Positions 30,196 through 32,148 of a stretch of DNA of 64,000 nt are shown here, piece by piece. The notes under the pieces were generated by a model. The model saw nothing but the letters and a program-made list of their open reading frames with translations. It did no database searches and was not told the DNA's origin. Position 1 is the stretch's first letter; each line of letters begins with the position of its first letter. The DNA comes from Thermoplasmataceae archaeon (GTDB taxonomy: Archaea; Thermoplasmatota; Thermoplasmata; Thermoplasmatales; Thermoplasmataceae): positions 143,927-207,926 of the forward strand of contig JAVYSB010000001.1 in NCBI GenBank assembly GCA_038729425.1, in the 5' to 3' direction. The translations under genes and the position numbers were made by a program.

Positions 30196-30345
30196 ATGGC
30201 GTTTCCTGAAGCTGTTGAAAGAAGACTCAACAAAAAGATTTGCATGAGATGCAATGCCAGAAATTCTCCCAGAGCAGAGAGATGCAGAAAGTGCGGGTAT
30301 ACCGGGCTTAGAATGAAAGCGAAGGAGAGGAGAGGTGGACAGTAA
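30196..30345 (+). CDS. rpl40e: 50S ribosomal protein L40e (eL40)
   Basis: My manual translation gives [49 protein letters not shown] (49 aa). This is the classic eL40 zinc ribbon. It falls below the ORF-track size cut-off. Confidence 0.85.
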
Positions 30346-31152: not shown

Positions 31153-31686
31153 TTACTTCAGTGCATGTGTGCTGAGAAACTCAGTTGTTCTTTCTTTGAA
31201 AACCTCGAGGGTAGAGTCATTTACTATCATGTAATCTGCAAGGGCTATTACGTTGCCTATGCCCCAGGATAGTTCCCTGTTGTCCCTCTCCAGGAGTCCC
31301 TGTTCGGACTTTATGTCGTCTGGGCGGTTCCTGCGCATGATTCTATCGAGTCTGTCCCTCCTGTTCGCGAAAATGGCAACCACGGATAACGTTTCATATT
31401 TCTTCTGGAAATATTCCAACTCCTCGTAATTCCTCACGCCATCAATCACGATATTCTCTCTTCCCTCTATATAAAGGCAGGTTCTCTGAGCCCAGATATG
31501 CTTCCCGTGCTTCTCTCTCTCCTGAGTGGCGAACGCTCCTACCTCATGATCACTTAGCTCTATGCCATTTTCGACAGCATATTTTCTGACAGTATTCCCC
31601 ATGTGAACGTCTGTGAAACCGAAATTATTGGCAACATTTATAAATTCGTCCTTGCCTGCCCCCGGCATTCCCGTAACCAACATCAT
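31153..31686 (-). CDS. UPF0200-type P-loop nucleotide kinase-like protein
   Basis: MMLVTGMPGAGKDEF (Walker A) and the ~177-aa length resemble the archaeal UPF0200 / dephospho-CoA-kinase-like family. Confidence 0.55.
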   Translation of the reverse strand: MMLVTGMPGAGKDEFINVANNFGFTDVHMGNTVRKYAVENGIELSDHEVGAFATQEREKHGKHIWAQRTCLYIEGRENIVIDGVRNYEELEYFQKKYETLSVVAIFANRRDRLDRIMRRNRPDDIKSEQGLLERDNRELSWGIGNVIALADYMIVNDSTLEVFKERTTEFLSTHALK

Positions 31687-31690
31687 TTAC

Positions 31691-31981
31691 TTACCGCCCA
31701 AACATGAAGCCCATCCCGCTTTCGGCCTCGTCCTCTTCTTCCTTTACCTTCTCATATATTTTTTGGCCATTCTTCACTTCCTTGAGATCGTCCAGTTTAA
31801 GTTCGGCTATCCTAGAGAATATCGCCTCAGTTCCCTCAAGAATCACGTATAGGGAATCGGACTCCCCGCCATAGTTATCAGCGTTTCTGTATATGATTGT
31901 CTGTCTTCCTATTATATCGTCAGAGAGAAGGATGTCAAGAGTCTTCCGCGCTTCTTTCTTTAAAGAGTATACCTTATACAT
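31691..31981 (-). CDS. Small hypothetical protein with a ribosomal-stalk-like acidic C-terminal tail
   Basis: 96-aa ORF ending ...KVKEEEDEAESGMGFMFGR*. Only 4 nt separate its stop from the ATG of the kinase-like gene. Confidence 0.55.
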   Translation of the reverse strand: MYKVYSLKKEARKTLDILLSDDIIGRQTIIYRNADNYGGESDSLYVILEGTEAIFSRIAELKLDDLKEVKNGQKIYEKVKEEEDEAESGMGFMFGR

Positions 31982-32148
31982 GTTTACCGGTGATTCGTAT
32001 GGCTAATTAAAATGTTGCAGTTACGCATTCACGGGGGCACTCATGTATTTATAATGATTGTTATAATATTTTTATTTTACGTATAATCAGTATTATTCAG
32101 CGTTAATGCAAACAAAGGTATTAGAACGAGATTGGAATTCCTGTGGCA

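Follow-up and report, generated by a model that had tools for sequence, protein, structure and literature searches.

The window analysed here, a 64,000-nt stretch of the genome of an acid-loving archaeon of the Thermoplasmataceae (contig JAVYSB010000001.1, positions 143,927 to 207,926), carries at positions 31691..31981 of the minus strand, stop codon included, a gene for a 96-aa protein that was recognised from the list of open reading frames and their translations. The C-terminus of the protein is EEEDEAESGMGFMFGR, and the translation closes with ...KVKEEEDEAESGMGFMFGR*. The gene is flanked by a divergently oriented 2-oxoacid:ferredoxin oxidoreductase gene and, on its downstream side, by a gene for a 177-aa UPF0200-type P-loop kinase (31153..31686, minus strand; Pfam AAA_17 and AAA_18), which matches PDB 3H0K/3LW7 (‘UPF0200 protein SSO1041’) with an E-value of 1e-25. 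Only 4 nt separate the stop codon of the stalk-tail gene from the start of the kinase gene, in agreement with the first-pass annotation, and the two genes are probably co-transcribed, the kinase being a lineage-specific neighbour. The upstream spacer, an AT-rich stretch of 160 nt, is common to the stalk-tail gene and the divergent oxidoreductase gene. Direct reading of this spacer revealed a TATA-like AT-rich element, ATTTTAATTA, at 32004..32013 (minus strand); its distance of 23-32 nt from the downstream ATG suggests a leaderless transcript. Elsewhere in the window, a 49-aa ORF at 30196-30345 (plus strand) is similar to ribosomal protein L40e (PF01020, E 9e-7); it lies just upstream of a purQ-like amidotransferase gene and overlaps its start.

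Residues 82-96 of the 96-aa protein (EEDEAESGMGFMFGR; 31694..31738, minus strand) form a peptide resembling the C-terminal factor-docking domain of the ribosomal stalk, as judged by a column-wise match to aP1 and aP0 tails. For this comparison, 110 tails of the family to which the protein belongs were set against 29 different stalk tails (aP1 or aP0) drawn from 27 of the phylum's genomes, with all sequences anchored on the C-terminal Gly. The two sets agree at Glu −13 (88/110 family tails and 25/29 stalk tails), Ala −10 (90/110 and 24/29), Gly −7 (all tails in both sets), Gly −5 (110/110; Gly in 18 and Ser in 10 of the 29 stalk tails), Phe −2 (107/110 and 29/29) and Gly −1 (93/110 and 28/29), as well as in the hydrophobic character of position −6 (Met, Val, Phe or Leu in the family, Leu in all 29 stalk tails) and position −3 (an I/L/V/M column with Ile in 72 and Leu in 18 of the 110 family tails, Leu in 28/29 stalk tails). 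The 96-aa ORF and its stalk-like tail, as first annotated, were confirmed, with the stalk register present at all conserved positions. There are, however, consistent departures from aP1: at −4, family tails have a bulky Phe, Met or Leu (overall column F/M/L/S/A), where stalk tails have Ala (22/29) or Ser (6/29), as well as Ile instead of Leu at −3 and Met, Val or Phe instead of Leu at −6, so that the binding specificity may differ.

To quantify the resemblance, a scoring matrix built from the 29 stalk tails was used to score every ORF C-terminus in the six-frame translation of the source genome (8,729 ORFs with a length of 40 aa or more). The ranking was headed by aP1 (39.4 bits) and aP0 (23.4 bits), with the stalk-tail ORF third (17.3 bits), ~20 bits above the next-best C-terminus (−2.6 bits). 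This gap, together with conservation of the tail in more than 100 relatives, excludes chance resemblance. A strict motif search of the same genome returned only aP1 and the stalk-tail ORF, aP0 having Glu at −5. The tail is also the most conserved segment of the family, which has a mean column identity of 34% in an alignment of 112 sequences; conservation of the tail in orthologues had been proposed at first pass as a check, and the orthologues do retain it. The invariant Gly and Phe codons change synonymously among close relatives, and most family members terminate exactly at ...FG, the protein from the window (Arg) and its closest relatives (Arg or Gln) having one extra residue past the terminal Gly. 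This pattern of conservation, synonymous change and a common ...FG end suggests that the tail is under selection.

A stalk protein gene (aP1/P1/P2) would be expected in one essential copy per genome, within the L11-L1-L10-L12 cluster. The source genome (1.45 Mb, 96.5% complete) has a single match to PF00428 (60 bits), which lies on another contig (G000:C2), where the canonical aP0 and aP1 genes occupy positions at about 59-61 kb (59.5-60.8 kb). The aP0 protein (316 aa) ends in ...SAGLESLFG and aP1 (105 aa) in ...MAGLSSLFG; a partial ORF upstream of aP0 is presumably ribosomal protein L1, giving an L1-L10(aP0)-L12(aP1) cluster. With a canonical aP1 encoded in the same genome, the 96-aa protein is not the aP1 of this lineage, and the first-pass view that it is something other than a divergent aP1, encoded outside the L11-L1-L10-L12 context, was upheld. 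The profile PF00428 gave no match to the 96-aa protein at E<=1 and was absent from the 25 most frequently matched families in a scan of 112 relatives. When the family was compared with the aP1 of the source genome by hhalign, as had been proposed at first pass, only the last 19 C-terminal columns aligned, in the same register, pairing EKVKEEEDEAESGMGFMFG with EKSEASEEDAMAGLSSLFG. The protein thus has the C-terminal factor-binding peptide of a stalk protein (acidic run followed by GL[GS]xLFG), but neither the helical N-terminal dimerisation domain nor the gene location of one: the body is modelled as b-a-b-b-a-b, and the family occurs in 104/201 genomes.

The structure of the body was predicted with AlphaFold2 from the 112-sequence alignment (pLDDT 87.7 overall and 90-94 over residues 1-80; pTM 0.76). 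Residues 1-70 (31772..31981, minus strand) are modelled as a compact alpha/beta domain with the order b1 a1 b2 b3 a2 b4 and ferredoxin-like topology, with strands at residues 2-8, 28-33, 43-49 and 66-68 and helices at 9-20 and 52-61. It is followed at residues 72-93 (31703..31768, minus strand) by a long C-terminal helix, assigned by DSSP on the model, whose distal half consists of the acidic run. The alpha/beta model and the lack of a PF00428 match agree with the earlier remark that the body does not look like the aP1 dimerisation domain. Along the C-terminal helix, pLDDT drops from 91 through 72 to 52 toward the C-terminus, as would be expected for a flexible end like that of the stalk C-terminal domain, and the tail is not docked onto the protein’s own domain in the model. 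Fold searches of the PDB (Foldseek, VIA-wide) returned generic ferredoxin-like matches only (best Z 6.8, Foldseek E>0.1). In the ESM Atlas, a structure search recovered unnamed clusters of the size and taxa of the family (TM 0.83-0.84), the named matches being generic (best TM 0.63). A weak structural likeness extends over 82 residues to the L11-binding N-terminal domain and linker helix of PrmA (TM 0.56 by query).

When 1.84 billion cluster representatives were searched exhaustively, 125 clusters were obtained at E<1e-3, in which the homologues are nearly all 92-100 aa long and align over their full length; among them, P0008 and P0078, both long repeat proteins, are spurious matches. A family profile search of a 5.8-billion set gave 427 clusters, and all named ones are ‘hypothetical protein’ entries from Thermoplasmata/Thermoplasmatota, with one from Aenigmatarchaeota, a taxonomic range with which the ESM Atlas agrees. 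Exact look-ups identified orthologues in the cultured Ferroplasma acidarmanus, Cuniculiplasma divulgatum, Thermoplasma volcanium, Picrophilus oshimae and Thermogymnomonas acidicola; the T. volcanium protein has the accession WP_048053983.1 and a Picrophilus one Q6L0V7. Within the sample of 201 Thermoplasmatota genomes, there is nearly always one match per genome where the ~97-aa family is found; several taxonomic families have it in every genome sampled, and it was not found in f4 (0/19), f12 (0/14) and f30 (0/21). Since the search recovered it from only about half of the genomes sampled in the phylum, the family is dispensable. The 96-aa protein is without a match in Pfam and NCBIfam, and the scan of its 112 relatives produced only scattered weak matches to KH, BofC and similar families. 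A PDB sequence-profile search with the family found nothing below E 0.29, a language-model search returned unnamed archaeal clusters only, with no usable named match for the N-domain, and a search of weak evidential value found no fused or longer forms of the family.

Outside the tail, D21, D22, R26 and G50 stand out, each kept in at least 90% of the 112 sequences; within the tail, the same level is reached at G89 and F94, and G91 is invariant. The first three residues belong to a conserved loop (residues 21-28, DDIIGRQT; 31898..31921, minus strand) with the family motif DD[IL][VI][SG]RQ[ST], and the equally conserved G50 lies in an EG[ST] motif; together, the DDxxxRQ loop and EG[ST] residues form a putative binding surface. 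The 96-aa protein has the complete family signature: a length of 92-100 aa, DD[IL][VI][SG]RQ[ST], EG[ST] and a C-terminal EE[ED]xAxxG-h-G-x-h-FG. Family members are acidic, with a median pI of 4.8 (5.0 for the N-domain). Four members of 122-135 aa (P0050, P0068, P0090 and P0106) have 25-40 additional residues inserted after the alpha/beta domain, ahead of the C-terminal helix; P0090 has CxxC-like cysteines, and the tail is kept in all four. Collectively, the 96-aa protein is a member of an unnamed family in which a small, unrelated domain is joined to a near-copy of the stalk factor-docking peptide.

The genomic surroundings of the family gene vary between lineages and are mostly not related to translation. 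Across the 77 loci with the family gene, adjacency to the UPF0200 kinase is limited to the source genome, Ferroplasma (L032) and Picrophilus (L035), which rules out a conserved operon with the kinase, so the link between the two genes implied at first pass did not hold as a general one. The most frequent arrangement, found in 28 of the loci, has a gene for pantetheine-phosphate adenylyltransferase (PPAT, NF001985) directly upstream and in the same direction (for example, L042:4488-4940, plus strand). All 28 belong to one syntenic block, which also includes genes for HDAC-like, PolB-like and PKD-domain proteins, and since these loci fall into one syntenic clade, they count as a single event. 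The neighbours in other lineages include Nep1, an RNase Z-like metallo-beta-lactamase, a CoA-binding protein (CoA_binding_2), a CBS protein and a NUDIX hydrolase; Nep1 and the RNase Z-like gene adjoin the family gene in few lineages, and small nucleotide or cofactor enzymes (PPAT, UPF0200 kinase, NUDIX, CoA_binding_2) recur beside it. None of the loci examined is part of a ribosomal operon. Gene context gives no function for the family.

The stalk peptide is also present on a second scaffold. A scan for ORFs closing with G-h-G-x-h-F-G-stop, run on 61 of the phylum's genomes, recovered the aP0/aP1 pairs and the 96-aa family, along with a 384-aa protein with weak similarity to HEAT repeats, which ends in ...DDDDEEFSGLGSLFG (G037:C1:453458-454609, corresponding to L226:959-2110, plus strand). 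The genome that encodes it belongs to f30, one of the taxonomic families from which the searches did not recover the 96-aa family. An acidic run followed by FSGLGSLFG is present in 4/4 orthologues of this protein (L226 and L231-L233; genus g52), which are 62-78% identical and vary in the linker before the tail. In the same lineage, aP1 ends in ...GGFDGLGSLFG, such that the tail of the HEAT-like protein copies that of aP1. The HEAT-like protein is a second, unrelated and independent carrier of the stalk peptide. Further motif matches, in G045, G047, G022, G049 and G021, either are tiny or do not correspond to ORFs, and a ~800-aa protein of G051 ending in ...GLGDLFG was set aside as the tail is not retained in its orthologues. 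A mini-ORF of 16-28 codons ending in ...AAGLGALFG was observed ~60 nt after an aP1 stop codon (L205:1899-1946, plus strand; G048:C2, ~31.0 kb); it resembles a duplicated aP1 3' end.

The C-terminal domain of Pyrococcus horikoshii aP1 has reportedly been solved in complex with aEF1A (PDB 3WY9) and also crystallised with aABCE1 and aEF2. The aEF1A of the source genome (L054:1501-2772) is most similar to the 3WY9 chain crystallised with the aP1 tail (E 3e-173). Tail positions −6, −3 and −2 correspond to L103, L106 and F107 of aP1, and position −13 corresponds to aP1 E96; in the 96-aa protein, the equivalents of L103, L106 and F107 are M90, M93 and F94. Mutation of each of the three aP1 residues abolishes binding to aEF1A (PMC4267659), and each is required for activation of aABCE1 (PMC6125642); earlier mutagenesis attributes aEF2 binding to these three as well, and E96 is a residue that archaeal aP1 and eukaryotic P1/P2 have in common (PMC4267659). 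In P. horikoshii, the carboxylate of aP1 Gly108 is clamped by K324 and S423 of aEF1A (PMC4267659). In the source genome, Thr and Asp take the place of these clamp residues, which differ between members of the phylum. Contacts in domain 1 are largely kept: in the phylum alignment, K125 remains basic and F129 aromatic, R132 is basic with one exception among the genomes, and L166 is present with two exceptions. Because the clamp residues are not conserved, the binding mode of 3WY9 cannot simply be assumed, and the mode of binding to aEF1A may differ for aP1 and the stalk-tail protein alike in this phylum. The presence of the family across the phylum showed no pattern with respect to the aEF1A pocket residues.

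A complex of the family protein with the aEF1A of the source genome was predicted from a 112-row family alignment and a 25-row aEF1A alignment. The median score was 0.38 (individual runs, 0.46, 0.38 and 0.32), compared to 0.00 for the best of three controls, and the runs agreed in at least 68% of contacts, with partner pLDDT of at least 79. The mark applied is passed by 58/80 solved complexes and by 2/110 mismatched pairs; the scores of 0.60 or below that reached it came from 7 of the 80 solved complexes and from both passing mismatches. Moreover, this pass may reflect memory, because the like complex 3WY9 is solved. The verdict of this check against aEF1A, one of those suggested at first pass, is weak support for binding of the family protein to its own aEF1A.

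The pockets known to receive the stalk tail are those of aEF1A, aEF2, aIF5B and the recycling ATPase aABCE1. On the basis of the tail comparison, we consider it an even prospect that the tail of the 96-aa protein engages these pockets away from the stalk, as a competitor or an adaptor, which makes this the most likely of the readings considered; an off-stalk role is proposed since the gene lies outside the ribosomal set and its product has a body other than that of a stalk protein. The independent second scaffold counts in favour of this reading as well. Against it count the consistent departures of the family tails from aP1, the residue past the terminal Gly in the 96-aa protein (the residue whose carboxylate is clamped in P. 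horikoshii), the variable clamp residues, surroundings that are unrelated to translation in most lineages and the dispensability of the family. The gene product is acidic (pI about 4.8) and soluble, and it joins a small ferredoxin-like domain and a long projecting helix to the tail. The tail would fold into a short helix, with M90, M93 and F94 inserting into the pockets used by the stalk tail. As a competitor, the protein would keep the factor away from the stalk, whereas as an adaptor, it would bridge the factor to a partner of the conserved DDxxxRQ/EG[ST] surface.

Among the alternatives, the one that survives best holds that the tail is a functional docking peptide for another partner, be it a lineage-specific protein or the protein’s own domain, and that its likeness to the stalk results from convergence on an acidic helix with a hydrophobic tip. 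We regard this as unlikely. Although a different partner would be in line with the consistent departures from aP1 at −6, −4 and −3, eight positions coincide in the stalk register, and the small residues A-10, G-7, G-5 and G-1 among them are not demanded by hydrophobic convergence, which argues against it. The neighbours are mostly small nucleotide and cofactor enzymes and not translation genes, as this explanation would have it, but the PPAT block that contributes to this picture is a single event. Similarly, the weak complex prediction with aEF1A leaves room for another partner, but the own domain is a poor candidate given the undocked tail in the model.

A further explanation, which we judge to be quite improbable, is that the protein is an accessory ribosome-bound factor, positioned for example near the stalk base, which adds a factor-recruiting tail to the GTPase centre. 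Such a protein could be expected to have the same stalk-like tail, and the likeness to the L11-binding domain of PrmA is a lead in this direction, though a lead only. The fold matches are generic, which counts against it. The Nep1 and RNase Z-like neighbours, which would fit with a ribosomal role, are confined to few lineages, and the gene is outside ribosomal operons at all loci examined; moreover, the acidity of the protein and its N-domain is unlike that of rRNA-binding proteins, and a family missing from the searches of about half of the phylum is at odds with such a role. Finally, that the protein is the divergent genuine aP1 of the lineage, or its tail a chance resemblance, is suggested by the tail resemblance alone and is extremely improbable in view of the canonical aP1 and aP0 in the same genome, the C-terminal restriction of the hhalign match, the alpha/beta fold where aP1 has a helical N-domain, and the 20-bit gap.

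Returning to the off-stalk competitor or adaptor, the two unrelated scaffolds allow a broader and more tentative proposal, which we consider possible but short of an even prospect: the stalk docking peptide might be a portable plug, carried by non-ribosomal archaeal proteins (the ~97-aa family and, independently, the HEAT-like protein) that titrate or redirect translational GTPases or ABCE1. In archaea and eukaryotes alike, the stalk tail is the one element with which the ribosome collects aEF1A, aEF2, aIF5B and ABCE1, and, to our knowledge, it has so far been known only on stalk proteins. If the portable-plug proposal is true, there would be an unrecognised layer sending factors away from the ribosome or to special sites on it, with stress or dormancy as a possible setting. 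The conserved, soluble, single-copy protein described here would, if it acts as proposed, be the first endogenous competitor or adaptor of the stalk-factor interaction in archaea, and would offer a direct handle on the regulation of factor supply to the ribosome. A word search of the literature found no description of an archaeal stalk mimic, and neither the tail strings nor the accessions of the orthologues from cultured organisms were found in any paper. Such a role is readily testable, as cultured members of Thermoplasma, Picrophilus, Ferroplasma and Cuniculiplasma carry the family, and assays of aP1 peptide binding and hybrid ribosomes exist.

Compared with known systems, the likeness to the UPF0200 kinase SSO1041 (PDB 3H0K/3LW7) is that of the downstream gene and not of the stalk-tail protein. 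Another small babbab protein, the aEF1A exchange factor aEF1B, is similar in size, has an alpha/beta sandwich and possibly shares the same partner; however, assignment of the family to aEF1B (PF00736, EF1_GNE) was rejected at an hhalign probability of 2%, a separate aEF1B gene is present in the source genome (G000:C2:206046-206288), and replacement of aEF1B by the family was discarded given that the profile similarity is nil and aEF1B is nearly universal in the phylum (190/201 genomes). With the tails of eukaryotic P1/P2 (...DDDMGFGLFD), the protein shares the acidic run and the M-G-F core, MGF being found within GMGFMFG of the window’s protein, but its tail has the archaeal seven-residue register and ends in Gly rather than Asp. 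The closest parallel is with aP1 and aP0 (PF00428), in which an acidic run is likewise followed by A-x-x-G-hydrophobic-G/S-x-hydrophobic-F-G and the peptide is placed at a flexible end. In contrast to these stalk proteins, the 96-aa family is built without the helical dimerisation domain and the Ala/Pro/Lys hinge, carries the peptide on an alpha/beta body, differs from them at −6, −4 and −3, is encoded outside the L11-L1-L10-L12 cluster, and is dispensable, about half of the genomes sampled having yielded a member.
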